From a virus: a stretch of DNA of 17,979 bases. The position numbers and the translations under genes were made by a program. The notes below the pieces were generated by a model. It ran no database searches, was not told the origin of the DNA, and worked only from the letters and a program-made list of their open reading frames with translations. Positions 1,090-8,821 of this stretch are shown piece by piece (position 1 is the first letter of the stretch; every line of letters begins with the position of its first letter). The DNA is taken from the UHGV virus genome UHGV-0211073; one strand, given 5' to 3'.

Positions 1090-3441
1090 ATGCGAAACAT
1101 TGATCTTATCCGTCAGGTTATCAGTGCGTCTGAAAACAACTGGCCTCATGTGCTGGGCTGCCTGAACATAAATGTCCCTGACTCTCCGCGCCGTCATGCT
1201 CCCTGCCCTGCATGTGGGGGCAAAGACCGATTCCGGTTCGATGACAACGGGCGCGGTAGCTTCATCTGTAATCAGTGCGGCGCTGGTGATGGGCTGGATT
1301 TAATTAAACGCGTAAATAACTGCGACACAACAGAGGCGGCGCTGCTTGCCGCTGATGTTCTGGGTATTGATTACCGGACAACGGAAACACCAGAAGCCAC
1401 CAGCCAGAAACGGGAACAACTGGAAACCGAGCGCCAGCGACGCGAACAGGAGCGCCTGAAAAGGGCAGAGAAGGACGAACAACAAAGACGGGATACGTTT
1501 TCCCGTCAGTTTGATGACATGCGCAGAAAGGCTGTAAACGGCAAATCTGATTATCTGGTTGCGAAAGGGGTAGGTGATTTTACATTCCCTGTGTTGCCCG
1601 ATGGATCTCTGTTGCTGGCGCTGGTGGATAAATCCGGCGCAGTTACAGCAGCACAGACTATTACCTCACATGGTGAAAAAAGACTCCTGACAGGTTCAGC
1701 AAAGCGAGGGGCATATCACGCCATAAACGCACAGAAACGACCTCACAGCATCATAATTGCTGAGGGGGTGGCTACCGCCCTGTCGTGCCATTTAATTCGC
1801 CCTGACGCAATGACAGTGGCAGCAATCGACGCTGGCAACCTGTTGCCAGTAGCGGAAGTCATGCGCAGAACATATCCACAGGCACAAATCATCATTGCCG
1901 CAGATAACGATCACCAGCAAGGAAACTCCGAAAGTGGAGGGATCAACACGGGGAAAGATGCCGCAGAGAGGGCCGCTATTTCCGTAGCTGGCTGGGTGTC
2001 TCTGCCACCGACTGACTATAAAGCCGACTGGAACGACTATCACCAACAACACGGGCTGGCGGCAGCCACAGCAGCATTTAAAGATTCGATGTACCAGCCA
2101 CGGGGGAAAGGGGCGCAGGTGAAAAATCACAAACAGTCAGTCGGGGCGCTGAATGAGATCAGTTCTGGCGAGGTGTTAAGCGATGATGAAATTGCTGTCC
2201 TCGAAGAAATCAACCGGACGTTTACGCATGTCACCATCGGCGGGAAACACAAGGTGGTGTCGCTAAAGCCTTCTCAAACCGGCGGTGTATCGCACGTTTT
2301 CGAGGATTTATCACAATTTCAGCATTATTTTCATCATAAACCGAGAGTCGCCAGAAAGCTGGCGGGATCGGCGTGGCTGTCATGGAGTGGGAAGAACTAC
2401 AAGCCAGGAGGCGTAGGATTTTATCCAGTACCAGACAAATGCCCTGACGATGTTTTTAATCTGTATGAGGGGCTGGCACTGGAACCAATTGAAGGAGATT
2501 GCACGGTATACCTTAATCACCTGTTGCAGGTTGTCTGTGCCGGTAATGAAGAGGCATACCAATATCTTATCCAGTGGATGGCGCACATTATCCAAAAGCC
2601 TGATGAAAAACCGTCCGTGGCAATCGTGATGAAATCTGTCCCGGGCACAGGGAAAGGCACAACGGTTAAACCGCTGCTGCAAATACTGGGGCAGTACGCC
2701 GCCCACATTAACGGGGCGGGACATATTTCAGGGCGCTTCAATTCAATACTTGCTAACAAGCTACTGGTATTTGCTGACGAAGTGACGATCCACAAGCCGT
2801 CTGAAGCTGACAGACTTAAAGCGATTATTAGCGAACCGACGTTTAACCTTGAGCGCAAGGGAATTGATGCTGAACCAATGCCGAATTTTGCCCGGTTGAT
2901 ATTTGCCAGTAACAGCACACAGGTATTACAGGCAGGGATAAGAGAGCGCCGCTATCTCGTGCTTGAGCCATCTCCTGAAAAAGCACAGAGCCGGGAGTAT
3001 TTTGATCGGCTGTACAGTTGGCTTAATGATGGCGGTGCCGCAAAGTTGCTTTGGCATCTTAAAGGGGTGGATCTCTCAGGTTTTGACCCTCAACGAGCGC
3101 CACAGACCGATGCCTTACGTGAAGAAATCTTGCTGGGGCTGTCTGGCGTTGAATTGTTTCTTTATGGCGAGCTAATCAATGAACCTCCGTTTAATGGCGA
3201 AGTCCGTTTGTTTGCAAAGGATATGGTTAGTCGGTTTGTAGCGTGGTCGCTTGAGCGTGGGGAAAAGCTTAAAGAACCAGCTGCCAGATCACTACTGGGT
3301 AAATCACTTGCACAAATGGGGCTGGTGAAGCATGGAAGACCAGACCGAGGGAATGGCGTGTTCTACGAACTACCAGAGGTCGGAGTTCTACAGGCTGCGT
3401 TTGCCCGTCTGATCGGTATGGGGGGTTATGATGTTTTTTAA
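1090..3441 (+). CDS. P4 alpha-like DNA primase/helicase (zinc-ribbon + TOPRIM-like + C-terminal P-loop NTPase)
   Basis: 783 aa. N-terminal Cys cluster 'CPACGG...CNQCG' (zinc-binding). Acidic TOPRIM-like motifs 'IIIAEGVATAL' and 'IIIAADNDHQQG'. Walker A 'VPGTGKGT' and Walker B-like 'LLVFADEV' in the C-terminal half. GGGGG-type RBS before the ATG. Confidence 0.9.
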   Translation: MRNIDLIRQVISASENNWPHVLGCLNINVPDSPRRHAPCPACGGKDRFRFDDNGRGSFICNQCGAGDGLDLIKRVNNCDTTEAALLAADVLGIDYRTTETPEATSQKREQLETERQRREQERLKRAEKDEQQRRDTFSRQFDDMRRKAVNGKSDYLVAKGVGDFTFPVLPDGSLLLALVDKSGAVTAAQTITSHGEKRLLTGSAKRGAYHAINAQKRPHSIIIAEGVATALSCHLIRPDAMTVAAIDAGNLLPVAEVMRRTYPQAQIIIAADNDHQQGNSESGGINTGKDAAERAAISVAGWVSLPPTDYKADWNDYHQQHGLAAATAAFKDSMYQPRGKGAQVKNHKQSVGALNEISSGEVLSDDEIAVLEEINRTFTHVTIGGKHKVVSLKPSQTGGVSHVFEDLSQFQHYFHHKPRVARKLAGSAWLSWSGKNYKPGGVGFYPVPDKCPDDVFNLYEGLALEPIEGDCTVYLNHLLQVVCAGNEEAYQYLIQWMAHIIQKPDEKPSVAIVMKSVPGTGKGTTVKPLLQILGQYAAHINGAGHISGRFNSILANKLLVFADEVTIHKPSEADRLKAIISEPTFNLERKGIDAEPMPNFARLIFASNSTQVLQAGIRERRYLVLEPSPEKAQSREYFDRLYSWLNDGGAAKLLWHLKGVDLSGFDPQRAPQTDALREEILLGLSGVELFLYGELINEPPFNGEVRLFAKDMVSRFVAWSLERGEKLKEPAARSLLGKSLAQMGLVKHGRPDRGNGVFYELPEVGVLQAAFARLIGMGGYDVF

Positions 3442-3470
3442 TATAGTCTTTTTACAAGAAGATCGTTTTT

Positions 3471-3574
3471 ACCTGTACCACCTATACCACTTTGCTAATT
3501 CAGCATTAAAAACAATGCGTTATAGTGGTACAGGTCAATATCTTACCTATACCAGACCTGTACCACCTATACCA
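3471..3574. repeat. Iteron-like cluster 1: two perfect 19-bp direct repeats ACCTGTACCACCTATACCA (3471-3489, 3556-3574) plus an inverted core TGGTACAGGT (3526-3535)
   Basis: Read directly from the sequence. Lies in the non-coding gap just after the primase stop (3441). Confidence 0.65.
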
Positions 3575-3617
3575 TTAACAAACGCATTTCTTCTGGCTGG
3601 CTGAGAGGGAACAACCA

Positions 3618-3848
3618 ATGATGAGCACACCATTTTACAAAGTGCGCCAGTTAGCTTCTTCCTCTGGCTGGCAGCTACGGTTTGAGGGGCGTTCAGACTG
3701 GCTACCCATTGCGGCATGGGCGAATGTTGAAATGTGTATTGACGGCGATACCGTTGAAATCATTATTCCCTGCGTGGCAAGTCGGGACGGCTGTATAGAG
3801 CCAACAGATATGGCAGCAGAAATCAGAGAGGTAAAACATGAACAATAA
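3618..3848 (+). CDS. Small hypothetical protein (76 aa)
   Basis: ATG preceded by GAGAGGGAA; stop overlaps the start of the next ORF by 11 nt. Confidence 0.45.
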   Translation: MMSTPFYKVRQLASSSGWQLRFEGRSDWLPIAAWANVEMCIDGDTVEIIIPCVASRDGCIEPTDMAAEIREVKHEQ

Positions 3849-4575
3849 CTATTGCATACTGCAGGGAATGACCAGAACGGAGCGCGAAGAATTAAAAAGT
3901 TTCGCTACACAGTGCGGGAATGCTGGCGACATCCAAAGTCTGGAACGCACTTTAATTATGATTGCGCACTGGATGCGCCAGGGGCAAAGAGTTTCATTTA
4001 CTGAATATGCCAGCCAGTGGACAGAGGCACAGCGCGAACGGAGCGACGGTAATCACTCAACACCCGAAATGGCGAAGCAATGGCCTTTCAGTGGTAAACG
4101 CTGTATCAGTCCCGGTGGTTCAGATTATTACCCTGCTGGTGTGGGAGATGAGCCATGTTGTGACGAGACTGAAATCCGCCACGCAGTGACAGTAATTACC
4201 GCTGAATACCCACAATTTAACCTTGACGGACTGGCGCTCCACAACCGGAATGCGGACTGGGAAAACCCGCTTGATAACCCGTCATTTATCGTATCGGCGA
4301 AAAGCTGCCTGAGATGGATCAGAGACAACGGGATGAGTAATGCCCAGATTGAGAGCTTCCCGCAGGATAACCCCACATCTGACACGTTGAAGCATGAAGT
4401 GGAGCGATATAACCAGATAAACCACCAGCACAGTGATCACCCGCACTATATCCCCAACGGAGCATTTATTGCGGCGATGGTGGCAAGCGGCTACAAGGTT
4501 AAGCCAGCGGGAAGAATGAACGCATTTTTCAATATTTCAAAAAAGGGATTATGTGCTGCTATGGGTAAAAATTAA
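3838..4575 (+). CDS. Hypothetical protein (245 aa)
   Basis: ATG at 3838 overlapping the upstream ORF; uninterrupted ORF; no motif recognised. Bracketed by the two iteron clusters. Confidence 0.55.
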   Translation: MNNNYCILQGMTRTEREELKSFATQCGNAGDIQSLERTLIMIAHWMRQGQRVSFTEYASQWTEAQRERSDGNHSTPEMAKQWPFSGKRCISPGGSDYYPAGVGDEPCCDETEIRHAVTVITAEYPQFNLDGLALHNRNADWENPLDNPSFIVSAKSCLRWIRDNGMSNAQIESFPQDNPTSDTLKHEVERYNQINHQHSDHPHYIPNGAFIAAMVASGYKVKPAGRMNAFFNISKKGLCAAMGKN

Positions 4576-4580
4576 ATAAA

Positions 4581-4684
4581 TGGTACAGGTCTGTACAGGT
4601 GGGGAGAGGTCATTTTTACCCACCTGTACCACCTGCAGGCCGCGCCACACAAGGGTTTGTGACATGGTGGTACAGGTGGTACAG
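4581..4684. repeat. Iteron-like cluster 2: several copies of the GGTACAGGTGG / CCACCTGTACC core in both orientations
   Basis: TGGTACAGGT (4581-4590), CTGTACAGGTGG (4591-4602), CACCTGTACCACCTG (4621-4635), GGTGGTACAGGTGGTACAG (4667-4684). Same core as cluster 1. Confidence 0.6.
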
Positions 4685-5050
4685 CAAAAACAGCGATTTT
4701 CTTTATAAGGTATGTTTTGCTCATCTGGCAGACGGAGGTATTCGCTGCGGTTTGGCACATAGCCCAGAACAGCAAAGAGTTTTACGAGACTTTTGTAAAA
4801 TCCAGTGTACAAGGGCGTGACGTTTTTGAAGGTGAGCACTACGAAATTTTCGTAGTTCAAAAAATAGCCTCTGAGATGTTGTTATGCCTGTTCAGCAAAC
4901 CATCCGCATAGCTGATCGCGAATCAAATTACCAATGGAGCCAGAAGCAAGGGCAGAACTGGAAAGCGCCTGCCGTGAAGAGTAATGCGACTCCATAAATA
5001 TAGTTTTTAGAGTCCATAAAAAAACTGTCAAAACCTGACATACAGAACGA

Positions 5051-5082
5051 TGCCACCAGCTACTGAACGGTGGCATTTTTTT
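5051..5082 (+). terminator. Rho-independent terminator (stem TGCCACC / GGTGGCA, then T7)
   Basis: 7-bp perfect stem with 11-nt loop followed by TTTTTTT at 5076-5082. Sits between the upstream module and the 5179 operon. Confidence 0.6.
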
Positions 5083-5178
5083 GTGCTATTTGTTTCATAT
5101 TTTGCAATCACAATGATGAATGTTGCGTTTTATGAAACTATAATGACTGTTGTTTTATACAGTTCTAAGGGGGGCGTT

Positions 5179-5352
5179 ATGGCTATTTCAGTAAAGCCAG
5201 TATTGATAAGTGAGAAGCAAATGGAAGCGATAAAGAAAATTCAGGAGGAGCAGCGTAAAAAATCAGAGGTAGGAGTTGCGCCAACGATCCACGAAATTGC
5301 TCGGGGATTAATGGATAAGGCGCTGGCTTACACTTTAACTGGACGTGGGTAA
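5179..5352 (+). CDS. Small protein (57 aa), first gene of a three-gene operon; possible DNA-binding or regulatory protein
   Basis: ATG at 5179 preceded by AAGGGGGG. Candidate -10 TATAAT at 5140-5145 in an AT-rich leader. Stop 5350-5352 lies 4 nt before the next ATG. The ORF-track start at 5050 overlaps the terminator and is rejected. Confidence 0.45.
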   Translation: MAISVKPVLISEKQMEAIKKIQEEQRKKSEVGVAPTIHEIARGLMDKALAYTLTGRG

Positions 5353-5356
5353 ATTT

Positions 5357-6700
5357 ATGGCTACGTGGCAACAGGGTATTAATTCTGGTGGTTTTCTGGC
5401 TGGCATCGGTGCGCAAAATGAGAATGCGCCAAAGGCAAGCGACATTAACGCAACGCTTGGTCTGATCCGCGAAAACAATGAACTGGCTCGCTCAGGTGCA
5501 AATAACGTTGCTCTGACAGGTCTTCGTGGTCTGGCTGGAGTTGCTGACATTTATAAGCAGCAGCAACAGCAGGAACGTAAAGCGGCATTCCAGAAAGGTT
5601 ATGCAGATGCTTATGCGTCCGGTGACAGGGAGCAGATGCGTAATCTTATTACAGCATTCCCAGAAGAGTTTGAGGAAGTCCGTAAAGGGATGAGTTATGT
5701 CGATGATGCTCAAAGGGATGATTATGGCAATCTGGCGCTCAAAGCACAGGTAGCCTCATCGCTTGGTCAGGGCGCATTTGGCAGGTTCATGATGGATAAT
5801 GAGCAGGAGATGCGTCGTTTAGGTATCCCTCCAGAAACTATTGCTGAAATGCAGGTTAATGACCCGCAGGGCTTCCAGCATTTCGCAGGTAATCTGGCGC
5901 TGTTTTCTCTCGGTCATGAGAAGTATTTCGATATCAAAGATCAAATGGAAGGTCGTCGACTTGAGCAAGGGCGACTGGATGAAAGTATGCGTCAGGCTGA
6001 CATGGAGAACGCGAGAGGATGGGCAAATATCCAGAACGCTCAACTAGACAGGGCTCAGCGAGCACAAATTCACTCAGATGAGATGGGATTGAAGCTAATG
6101 GAGCTGGGGCAAAAAGGTAAGCCGTCAGCAGACTTAATTAAGGGATTAAATTCTGACATTACCAATTTTGGCAAAAATTATAACTCTGTCAGAGCGGCGG
6201 CAAACTCTCTGCAAGCCCTTAGCAAGGTAAATACTGGCGCTGCCCAACTTGGGATTATCTTCAACTACATGAAATCTCTTGACCCGCAGTCAGTCGTTCG
6301 TGAAGGCGAACAGGTTCAGGTAATGCGGTCTGATGGCATATGGGGACAAATCAAAGGATACATAGACCAGCTTAATGCTGGAAACGGCCTGTCGCAGGAG
6401 GCAAAGGATAACATTGTTAACGCCGCAAAAATCAACGCCAATGCTATGGGGCAGCAGTTTAACCAGCAGGTTGACGAGTATCTCGATACATATGGAGAAA
6501 CTATTCCTCAGGGGCTAAGAAAAAGCCTTGAAAGAAGGAAAGCGAAGCTATTTGACGATGTTTCCGGGCAGCCTACATCACAGGCTGGCACTGGACAGGC
6601 AAAAGCGGCAACCGGAGGAATATCAGAAGGCGCAACGGCAACCAACCCTAAAACTGGTCAGAAAATCATTTACAGGAACGGAAAATGGCAGCAAATGTAA
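5357..6700 (+). CDS. Large hypothetical protein (447 aa), Q/A/G/N-rich, no catalytic motif recognised
   Basis: ATG at 5357 (MATWQQ...); long ORF; stop overlaps the start of the next gene by 16 nt. Contains a poly-Q run (QQQQQ) and no Walker A (GQKGKP does not fit), HEXXH or other signature. Confidence 0.7.
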   Translation: MATWQQGINSGGFLAGIGAQNENAPKASDINATLGLIRENNELARSGANNVALTGLRGLAGVADIYKQQQQQERKAAFQKGYADAYASGDREQMRNLITAFPEEFEEVRKGMSYVDDAQRDDYGNLALKAQVASSLGQGAFGRFMMDNEQEMRRLGIPPETIAEMQVNDPQGFQHFAGNLALFSLGHEKYFDIKDQMEGRRLEQGRLDESMRQADMENARGWANIQNAQLDRAQRAQIHSDEMGLKLMELGQKGKPSADLIKGLNSDITNFGKNYNSVRAAANSLQALSKVNTGAAQLGIIFNYMKSLDPQSVVREGEQVQVMRSDGIWGQIKGYIDQLNAGNGLSQEAKDNIVNAAKINANAMGQQFNQQVDEYLDTYGETIPQGLRKSLERRKAKLFDDVSGQPTSQAGTGQAKAATGGISEGATATNPKTGQKIIYRNGKWQQM

Positions 6701-8802
6701 TCTTACCGGAAGGTTTTGTGCTCGATGAACAACCTGATAACTCACAGTTTCCTGATAGTTCACAGCTTCCTGATGGTTTTGTGCTTGATGCCCAACCAGA
6801 ACAGCAGCAATCACCTTTGGTTTCACCAGAGGAAAATTCCAGACAGGAAAATGTTGTTAATAATGCTAACGGTTTCGACCGTTTTATGTATGGCGTTCTC
6901 AGTGGATTGATGGATGTTGGTAAAGGTGTTGGCCTGTTTCAGGATATGACACCAGAAGAGCAAGCCGCAATTCAGTCTCTACAGCAGAAGTTAGCGGCAA
7001 AACCATCAACCGCACAAGATGTTGGTGAGTTCGTTGGACAAGCAGCGCCATTTGTTAGTGGTGGTGGGATTATTTCTCAGGTTCCCAAAGGGGCGGCAAG
7101 ACTGGCTGCCGCCGTAGGGCTTGGTGCTGGAGAAGGGGCTATTGTAGCCAATGGAACAAATAGCGATGTTGCTTCCGGCGCTGCTATTGGCGCTGTGGCT
7201 GGCCCTGTAGCCGAACTTGCTGGCCCTGCAATTAATAAAATAGCTGGGAAATTAACCAAGAAGAATGTTTCTTCGATTCCAGATATTGAGGGGATTACTC
7301 CTGCCGAAGAGAAAATTCGTAAGTTATCTGCACAAGGCAACCCAAATCTTGCCTCTTCGCTTGAAGGGCTAGATCTAAAACCTCAGAAAGAAATTGTTGA
7401 GGCTGCAAATAGGCTTCATGTTGATTCAGTTCTTCCTTCTCATTTATCAGGAAATGAGCAATACCAAGCTGTAGAGCAAGCCCTAAAGTCACGGACAGGA
7501 TCAGCGTTAAAAGCTCAAGAAGATAAAGCAATAAGCGAATTAGCCTCTAGTGCTGACAAGATAATCGATGATGTTGCTGGTGCGCCAGATGCGTTAGCTA
7601 TGAGCGAAAAATATATTTATCAGATAAATAGTAGAATGGAAGCACTAAAAAACCGTAGTGATCAGTTATATAAACGTGTTGATTCCGCTCTATCACCAAG
7701 AACAAAAGTCGAAGCAAATAACACAAGCACTATGCTGGAAAAAATCGCTGATGATTTAGGAGGGTGGGATAATCTTGACCCAATAGAAAAGCGAGTTTTT
7801 ACAGCAATAAACCCCGGCCCAGATAGCATCCTAACGTATGCAAATTTAAACAGGCAAAGGCGTTTAGTTGGTGATGCCCTAAATAAAAAGCAGGGGCCAT
7901 ACAAAGATGCTGATAAAGAAGCGCTATCAAGACTATATGGAGCTTTAGCTGAAGACCAAAAATCTGTCTTATCCAATACTGGATACTTGCGAGATTTCGA
8001 AGTCGCACAACGCCTTGTAGCTATGAGAAAAAACTTAGAAAGGCAAATGGTAAATCTTCGCGGGAAAACACTTAATGGGGATATAGCGTATAAAGTAACG
8101 AATTCTCTTCAATCTATGGCAAAAGGTGATGCGAGAGGGTTTCGTGAGATTATGCAAAATACTCCATCAAGAACATTGCGAAGGGAGCTAGTAGGAACAG
8201 CATTAAGAGATATGCTTTCCTCTGGGAAGCGTGGGGCCGACTTTAATCCATCTGGCTTTGCAGATTGGTGGCAAAACTTGCAACACAGTGGACAGCTAAA
8301 GACTTTGGCTGAACATTTGCCAAAAGAAACAATGAGCGGACTATATGATGTATACAAAGTTGCCAGAGCAATAAAAAATGCTAAAGCGCATGAAATATCT
8401 ACTGGTAAGCTGAATGAGTTTGTAAACAGATTTAATCGGGTAACAGCTCCATACGAACTAGCAGCAAAACACATTCAAAAAATAGGCACGATGGTAGGCG
8501 CTCATTTTGGATCGCTTGGAGCCATTGCTGGGGCTGATATTGGAGCAAGATTGGCGAGTAAAGCTCGATTAGCTGGTGGAGCAGGGGCGGCTGATGCTGC
8601 GGATAAATTAATTGCCTCGCCAGCCTTCCAGAGCGCAGTAAAAAATCTACACGGAAAAGCGCCTGGGCACATTGTTGATTCACGTATCAGGCGCTCCCCT
8701 CAATGGAAGAGTTTTTTTAACTCTCTTCCTGAACAGGAAAAACGGACCATCGCCAGACTGGGCATCATTACTTGGCTATCTAATGATCCAGATAATGACT
8801 AG
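6685..8802 (+). CDS. Large hypothetical protein (705 aa) with N-terminal P[ED]GFVLD repeats and Gly/Ala-rich segments
   Basis: ATG at 6685 overlapping the upstream gene. N-terminus has 'LPEGFVLDEQP...LPDGFVLDAQPEQ'. Gly/Ala-rich stretches 'AAAVGLGAGEGAIVANG...AAIGAVAGPVAELAGPAINKIAG' and 'GAHFGSLGAIAGADIGARLA...AGGAGAADAADK'. No enzymatic motif seen. Confidence 0.75.
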   Translation: MAANVILPEGFVLDEQPDNSQFPDSSQLPDGFVLDAQPEQQQSPLVSPEENSRQENVVNNANGFDRFMYGVLSGLMDVGKGVGLFQDMTPEEQAAIQSLQQKLAAKPSTAQDVGEFVGQAAPFVSGGGIISQVPKGAARLAAAVGLGAGEGAIVANGTNSDVASGAAIGAVAGPVAELAGPAINKIAGKLTKKNVSSIPDIEGITPAEEKIRKLSAQGNPNLASSLEGLDLKPQKEIVEAANRLHVDSVLPSHLSGNEQYQAVEQALKSRTGSALKAQEDKAISELASSADKIIDDVAGAPDALAMSEKYIYQINSRMEALKNRSDQLYKRVDSALSPRTKVEANNTSTMLEKIADDLGGWDNLDPIEKRVFTAINPGPDSILTYANLNRQRRLVGDALNKKQGPYKDADKEALSRLYGALAEDQKSVLSNTGYLRDFEVAQRLVAMRKNLERQMVNLRGKTLNGDIAYKVTNSLQSMAKGDARGFREIMQNTPSRTLRRELVGTALRDMLSSGKRGADFNPSGFADWWQNLQHSGQLKTLAEHLPKETMSGLYDVYKVARAIKNAKAHEISTGKLNEFVNRFNRVTAPYELAAKHIQKIGTMVGAHFGSLGAIAGADIGARLASKARLAGGAGAADAADKLIASPAFQSAVKNLHGKAPGHIVDSRIRRSPQWKSFFNSLPEQEKRTIARLGIITWLSNDPDND

Positions 8803-8807
8803 TGAAT

Positions 8808-8821
8808 GGCCACGGATGGCC
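8808..8821. other. Short hairpin (GGCCA-CGGA-TGGCC) between convergent genes
   Basis: 5-bp stem between the 705-aa stop (8802) and the stop of the minus-strand gene (8822). No clear T-tract, so weak as a terminator. Confidence 0.3.

Follow-up and report, generated by a model that had tools for sequence, protein, structure and literature searches.

At positions 3618 to 4575 of the window, which denotes here the whole stretch of 17,979 nucleotides that was analysed, two overlapping genes are located on the plus strand between two clusters of short repeats. The first gene, ORF76 (3618-3848), encodes a small, acidic (pI 4.6) and all-beta protein of 76 amino acids, and is preceded by a Shine-Dalgarno sequence, GAGAGGG, at 3603-3609. 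The second gene, ORF245 (3838-4575), encodes a protein of 245 amino acids, with GAGAGGT at 3826-3832 as its Shine-Dalgarno sequence. The ATG codon of ORF245 is placed 11 nt before the end of the TAA stop codon of ORF76, and the two genes overlap by these 11 nt. The gene upstream of the pair encodes a primase-helicase of 783 amino acids (1090-3441, plus strand). A promoter and terminator scan detected neither a sigma-70-like promoter nor a terminator between the end of the primase gene at 3441 and the pair, and both were absent also between ORF76 and ORF245. The nearest terminator-like hairpin on the 3' side of the pair, followed by a T-run, was found at 5042-5084 on the plus strand by the terminator scan and as the inverted repeat I17, and it is probably the end of the replication operon. 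From the lack of promoters and terminators between the primase gene and the pair, together with this hairpin, the pair is most simply regarded as the 3' end of that operon. An ORF of 58 amino acids at 3428-3604, which spans the first repeat cluster, most likely arises as an artefact from the repeated iterons and is not a gene; a similar ORF spans an arm in the related locus L007.

Close homologues of ORF245 (n=29) were found at 41-98% identity, and those of ORF76 numbered about 20, all of them in Enterobacterales. The genera with homologues of the pair are Raoultella, Enterobacter, Salmonella, Pantoea, Buttiauxella, Xenorhabdus and Providencia. Identities of 41-75% were recorded for homologues in Raoultella, Enterobacter, Salmonella, Buttiauxella, Xenorhabdus and Providencia, and the homologues extend as far as Xenorhabdus and Providencia with 41-45%. 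When the genes were compared with the 60%-identical copies in L007, at which distance dS is near saturation, the dN/dS values were 0.28 for ORF76 and 0.09 for ORF245. The locus, scored as present when at least 80% of 3400-4900 was covered, occurs in 130 of 5,426 complete E. coli genomes, and a 100% identical copy is found in many of the complete genomes, among them that of ETEC H10407. As judged from these comparisons, ORF76 and ORF245 are real genes under purifying selection, and no homology to a housekeeping family was found; the preliminary description would have been contradicted by a pair without conservation or with such homology. The idea that the pair is variable hotspot cargo was dropped, because neither its position nor its sequence varies enough across genera for such cargo.

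The two genes are, on the other hand, separable, and the coupled pair of the preliminary description does not form an obligate two-gene unit. Homologues of ORF245 are present without ORF76 at well over a dozen loci, including L003, L015, L018, L022-L026, L139 and L149. Conversely, a Salmonella island (L160) carries a homologue of ORF76, between a DUF5906 helicase and SSB, without ORF245.

The repeat clusters are made of the iteron CCTRTACCA, which has nine exact sites in the 17,979 bp, all within 3472-3574 or 4581-4676, while only 0.14 sites were expected; the count of nine was reached in none of 200 shuffles. The overlapping ORFs are thus bracketed by repeat clusters, as had been claimed beforehand. 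Origin arm 1 (3467-3574) contains six iterons, five direct and one inverted, and an AT-rich spacer. Origin arm 2 (4576-4690), defined from the inverted-repeat pairs I1, I3 and I4, the arm alignment and the iteron scan, is an inverted copy of arm 1 with three exact iterons, degenerate ones and a GC-rich spacer, and is crr-like. When arm 1 was aligned with the reverse complement of arm 2, the arms appeared as one unit of about 125 bp present twice in inverted orientation, in which two direct iterons are followed by the spacer, one inverted iteron and two or three direct iterons. The spacer of arm 1 has a GC content of 0.34, as expected for an unwinding element, and the drop to this value was recorded at 3450-3549. 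The arms lie downstream of the primase-helicase gene, about 1 kb apart with the two genes inside, and the assignment of the pair to the replication origin is sustained.

The primase-helicase matched the Pfam models Zn_Ribbon_Prim, Toprim_3 and DUF5906 (SF3 helicase). Its N-terminal 335 amino acids showed 33% identity with P4 alpha (BLASTP, E 1e-40), and the alignment was confined to residues 7-337. The helicase half matched the helicase domain of the NrS-1 primase (6k9c) with an E-value of 1e-10. D5_N and Pox_D5 gave no Pfam matches in the window primase, and the winged-helix origin-binding domain of P4 alpha (1ka8) gave no phmmer match with it. This protein is the replicase of the element and presumably the binder of the iterons. 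In an otherwise near-identical island (L002), the first approximately 351 amino acids of the primase (6059-8818) are retained at 85% identity, the helicase half is replaced by DUF927, and the iterons and the pair are both absent. The recombination breakpoint inside the primase gene of L002 indicates that the helicase half, the iterons and the pair move as one cassette.

The element that carries this cassette is a complete, circularly permuted Gram-negative PICI-type satellite of 17,979 bp. The last 191 nt of the window (17789-17979) and positions 1-4 together encode a 64-aa protein, exactly the one that H10407 has between ash and the first gene; since the two ends join into this protein, the window is a circular permutation of the complete element. 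The H10407 island comprises, in this order, genes for a tyrosine integrase, an AlpA-like HTH protein, AntA/B and Ash, small ORFs, the primase, the pair, P22 gp20- and gp16-like ejection proteins and PerC. The window differs from the H10407 copy at 9682-11029 and at 11793-15272, the latter with a different integrase. Gram-negative PICIs have been defined as elements of 10-20 kb with int, an alpA-type regulator and pri in one orientation (PMC10111431), and are arranged in integration, Bro, replication and late zones with the origin downstream of pri (PMC10111431). The window has the corresponding size, int, HTH gene, pri, origin downstream of pri and late zone. Its tyrosine integrase (12594-13946), AlpA-like HTH gene (15065-15283), Bro/Ash zone, primase-helicase, late zone and C4/isrK RNA agree with the preliminary classification as an island-type satellite. 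The isrK RNA (17110-17187; Rfam, 67.8 bits) and the C4 antisense RNA (17250-17337; Rfam, 79.9 bits) both lie inside ash and are the P4-type CI/seqA RNA immunity system, here without sid, delta and psu.

The late zone (5345-8802) encodes P22 gp20-like (Pfam Inj_translocase) and gp16-like DNA-ejection proteins, and the sequence similarity of these genes suggests P22-like phages as helper candidates. The element has no capsid or terminase genes, and it is unusual for a satellite to bring ejection proteins of its own; in relatives such as L002, the late zone adds DUF2824 and one further gene. A non-coding stretch at 4776-4900, between arm 2 and the terminator-like hairpin and upstream of a 57-aa gene and the ejection genes, is 93-96% conserved in approximately 330 further complete E. 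coli genomes, in islands that have other replication modules and not the pair. It could be a late promoter/operator, a packaging signal or a small RNA. The segment at 10123-10992, absent from the H10407 copy, encodes an M78/IrrE-type peptidase (PADLOC capP-like, E 5e-25; also RmrA-like) and a 125-aa partner, and these may be a regulatory or defence-related cargo pair.

The preliminary description had found no recognisable motifs in the pair, and the profile libraries gave the same picture. Pfam, NCBIfam and PADLOC returned zero matches for ORF76 and ORF245, and the sole PHROGs match of the pair was a weak one of ORF245 to phrog_9576 (E 7e-4), annotated as 'unknown function'. An exhaustive profile search, however, collected 837 relatives of ORF245 at E <= 1e-3. 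Among the 186 relatives that were mapped, the C-terminal part was present alone in 95, the N-terminal part alone in 48 and both in 25. At the level of sequence, ORF245 is a fusion of two independent, widespread domains, which are also found as separate proteins. The N-domain (3838-4140, plus strand; approximately amino acids 5-100) is helical and is characterised by MTYxERExLK...MIAHWMRQ...FxxYAxxW...WPLxGxRxIxDxxSDW, and its stand-alone versions are proteins of about 90-120 amino acids. The C-domain (4150-4575, plus strand; approximately amino acids 105-245) has a winged-helix-like core and the conserved segments SYGLKHxVE, YIxNGAFIAA and NAxFNIS. Neither domain has a Pfam or NCBIfam model. 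Stand-alone homologues matched PHROGs 9576 and 17839 (C-domain) and 4935 (N-domain) with E-values from 1e-5 to 1e-13; all three families are annotated as 'unknown function', and hence supply no mechanism.

Models of the two proteins were confident (pLDDT 88 and 89), and the AF2 model of ORF245 had a pLDDT of 87.9 and a pTM of 0.81. In this model the N-domain is predicted as a small helical bundle followed by the conserved loop, and the C-domain as helices followed by a beta-hairpin, with a weak likeness to a winged helix. The putative recognition helix of the C-domain, NGAFIAAMVA, has a hydrophobic character that would be atypical of a protein binding specific DNA sequences. Profile searches of all PDB sequences with ORF245, the N-domain, the C-domain and ORF76 gave nothing below an E-value of 0.6, and Foldseek against viral predicted structures gave no match at E <= 0.001, the best being a 149-aa protein at 2.4e-3. 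By hhalign, the C-domain was unrelated to the primase C-terminus and to the C-terminus/origin-binding region of P4 alpha, and the N-domain was unrelated to P4 Cnr. A tblastn search with ORF245 found nothing in 50,697 phage records, and only truncated island remnants in plasmids. Domain-fusion ('Rosetta stone') partners of the C-domain were limited to sub-threshold matches of DUF2786 and of the N-terminal part of Glyoxalase_8. The homology and structure searches that had been proposed for the pair yielded 837 relatives of ORF245, and no match of either protein to a known toxin, antitoxin or defence protein or, by sequence, to a solved structure.

The genomic neighbourhoods of this family point to replication modules. 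In enterobacterial islands, the gene with both domains or with the N-domain only directly follows the replicase gene in nearly all loci in which the upstream gene was identified; the exceptions are a Mu-like prophage (L013), a degenerate Raoultella copy (L014) and L031, which has a tail-gene region upstream. Three replicase types precede these genes, namely window-type primases (L006, L007, L017), P4-alpha-type primases with Zn-ribbon, Toprim, D5_N, DUF5906 and Pox_D5 (L015, L018, L029, L030, L145-L150), and AAA_25 RepA-like helicases (L003, L022-L026, L139, L149, L152). The gene after the ORF245 homologue is often SSB, with its start overlapping the preceding stop codon, followed by ProQ/FinO and PerC. 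Among 80 IMG/VR loci with the C-domain profile, at least 34-38 carry a module of PolA, a PD-(D/E)XK nuclease and an SNF2 helicase, although two peptide patterns served to pick these loci and many of them are related phages, so that the counts overstate independence. The locus scan used a narrower C-domain alignment, the broad one being too diverse. By Pfam, the same module also has Gam/gp157-like and SSB-like genes. At 38 neighbour positions the C-domain ORF is directly adjacent to PolA or the nuclease, and the stop codon of one gene often overlaps the start codon of the next; in many phage contigs the C-domain is placed between the family-A DNA polymerase and the PD-(D/E)XK nuclease. In the Mu-like prophage L013, which has no iteron origin, the ORF245 homologue lies in the early region beside a DUF2786/DUF7168 gene. 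A gene of this kind is found repeatedly on the 3' side of ORF245-family genes (L013, 6938-8431; L005, 169-1187; L075, 5020-6423), and one C-domain protein has a fused N-terminus with a weak likeness to DUF2786; these findings suggest a functional link between the two families.

The position of the family relative to the origin was also followed among the relatives. In L007, the pair is likewise located between inverted CTGTACC iteron arms. In the Xenorhabdus locus L006, the homologue of ORF76 is alone between the arms, with that of ORF245 immediately beyond them. The P4-like satellite L004 has adjacent arms after alpha, and a C-domain-only gene is next. In the Lacticaseibacillus phage JB1P3, two inverted iteron arms of 104 nt, 43 nt apart, follow the Prim-Pol/PriCT and VapE genes and directly precede a C-domain gene (47.8 bits to the profile). 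This locus (L159; PV668529, 5956-6655) shows the inverted 104-nt arms, CTGTCCCA, then the C-domain gene, HNH and terS; JB1P3 is a 14-kb Gram-positive 'phage' with a cfPICI-like layout. Among the relatives, the place of ORF76 is invariably within the arms or next to them, and that of ORF245 is within the arms or immediately behind them. The adjacent arms of L004 and of JB1P3, the one Gram-positive relative examined, indicate that the window origin is a split version of such an origin.

From synteny and fold, we infer a role of ORF76 and ORF245 as accessory proteins of the replication module, a reading that we hold tentatively and rate as nearly an even call. The two genes close the replication operon, are transcribed together with the primase-helicase gene and are coupled in translation. 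Their reality, this place in the operon, the anatomy of the origin, the domain architecture and the synteny are shown by the analysis, and the function in replication with all its biochemical detail is deduced from them. The domains of the ORF245 family accompany at least five unrelated replicase types, and it is therefore most likely that ORF245 recognises something other than the initiator of the element. Its target may be shared by all of these replicase types, for example SSB, a component of the host replisome, or DNA in single-stranded or forked form, and ORF245 could serve as an adaptor that helps to establish or protect replication forks after induction. All homologues of ORF76 neighbour the window-type DUF5906 helicase and CTGTACC iterons. 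ORF76 could be a modulator specific to this replicon, acting for example on the binding of the replicase or on the pairing of the two arms, as Cnr acts on P4 alpha. A bolder form of this proposal, which we consider somewhat unlikely, is that the N- and C-domains are an unrecognised, widespread class of replication accessory proteins, acting as replisome adaptors or fork-establishment cofactors with any helicase type, and that ORF76 is an origin-embedded regulator of iteron-arm pairing in a split origin. Such a class would span Gram-negative and Gram-positive PICIs, P4-like satellites and PolA-encoding phages.

Several points count against a function in replication. The searches described above gave no homology of the pair to any characterised replication protein, the Mu-like prophage L013 with its homologue has no iteron origin, the C-domain gene of JB1P3 adjoins HNH and terS, and the putative recognition helix of the C-domain is hydrophobic. 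In addition, early and replication operons of mobile elements also carry genes for anti-defence and host takeover, and guilt by association is therefore weak. The pair could consist of early proteins that, instead of taking part in replication, neutralise a host nuclease, a defence system or the DNA-damage response. Their expression would precede that of other genes once the element is induced or has entered a cell, as with plasmid leading regions and the semi-essential region of Mu. This explanation accounts for much of the evidence behind a replication role, including the independence of the ORF245 domains from the replicase type and the location of their genes next to SSB in many islands. 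It would also fit the Mu-like prophage, in which the homologue is an early-region gene beside DUF2786/DUF7168, the phage C-domain genes that adjoin a Cas4-like nuclease and a Gam/gp157-like gene, and the small size and acidity of ORF76. However, Pfam, PHROGs and PADLOC matched no known anti-restriction or anti-defence family, the place right after the replicase or origin is far more constant than variable counter-defence cargo would show, and ORF245 is highly conserved, as its dN/dS value indicates, unlike fast-evolving counter-defence genes. We regard this alternative as unlikely.

The preliminary description had noted that genes just after the origin often encode interference with the helper phage or redirection of packaging. 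The precedent stands, for rppA, a post-origin gene of EcCICFT073 whose product has a winged HTH, encodes interference (PMC6739421). If the pair acted likewise, one product would bind a morphogenesis or packaging protein of the helper, as RppA binds TerS. The winged-helix-like core of the ORF245 C-domain and the position of the JB1P3 C-domain gene directly before HNH and terS are consistent with this idea, but its extension to the pair did not hold up. No similarity of the pair to Rpp proteins was found, ORF245 has no detectable similarity to any solved structure and its architecture is unlike that of Rpp, and its domains also occur in the replication modules of ordinary phages, which have no helper. 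Interference of this type is quite improbable for the pair. The suggestion of a toxin-antitoxin-like addiction module, with ORF76 as the antitoxin and ORF245 as the toxin, agrees with the adjacency of the genes, their overlap with the small gene first and the co-transcription expected from the absence of a promoter and a terminator between them, as in type II modules, but is very hard to maintain, since each gene occurs without the other (ORF245 in RepA-type and P4-alpha-type islands, ORF76 in L160), either half of ORF245 occurs alone, and no toxin or antitoxin family or fold and no antitoxin DNA-binding domain (HTH, RHH or AbrB) was detected.

To our knowledge, P4 and a few SaPIs are the only satellites in which the firing of the replicon and the control of its copy number are understood in detail. 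If ORF76 and ORF245 are true replication cofactors, a function would become known for a gene that recurs in the replication modules of phages and satellites, and the split origin, with inverted arms 1 kb apart, would offer a simple system for studying replicase-mediated looping. If they act against helper phages or host defences, they would represent a new class of satellite weapon. The ORF245 domain families have no Pfam entry, although their relatives number in the hundreds and are found consistently next to genes for replicases, polymerases and SSB.

The type of the element, the type of its origin and the placement of accessory genes after the origin are already known from other systems. 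What is new is that ORF245 fuses two widespread, uncharacterised domains linked to replication modules, which span Gram-negative and Gram-positive satellites and phages, and that the origin is split with genes inside. Among Gram-negative PICIs, a precedent in position is that of the Rpp proteins, which are about 144-153 amino acids long and have a MerR/TerS-like wHTH at the N-terminus and a coiled-coil domain for dimerisation at the C-terminus (PMC6739421). RppA/B/C and the pair share the post-origin location, and RppA/B/C contain a winged helix, which the core of the ORF245 C-domain weakly resembles. ORF245 differs from RppA/B/C in size and architecture, shows no sequence similarity or top-ranked structural similarity to them, and has domains that are also found in phage replication modules. 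RppC was not among the PDB matches of the pair, and the searched copy of the database may not contain it. P4 Cnr (DUF5375), which belongs as a small accessory protein to a replication operon of this kind, is a possible counterpart of ORF76 by analogy; it is encoded upstream of alpha, and in the comparison made with the N-domain of ORF245 it showed no profile similarity.

The resemblance to P4 itself is partial. Like P4, the window has a primase with Zn-ribbon and Toprim domains in fusion with a helicase and directly after it short iteron clusters in both orientations, two separate iteron regions, to which the replicase is predicted to bind here, and the C4/isrK immunity RNA. The geometry of the arms differs from that of P4, in which crr consists of two direct 120-bp repeats right after alpha, 60 bp apart with a geneless gap, and ori1 is about 4.5 kb away. 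The window has only two arms, which are inverted, approximately 1 kb apart and enclose two genes. The helicase half and the C-terminus of its replicase have no relation to alpha detectable by BLAST, the helicase being NrS-1-like instead, and sid, delta and psu are absent from the window. P4, for its part, has no homologue of ORF76 or ORF245 (tblastn against phage records). With origins of the PICI/SaPI type, the window origin shares its location immediately 3' of the replicase gene and the arrangement of its iterons in two inverted arms, as in JB1P3. It is distinguished from them by the 1 kb of coding DNA that parts the arms; in the Xenorhabdus relatives, the arms enclose the ORF76 homologue only.
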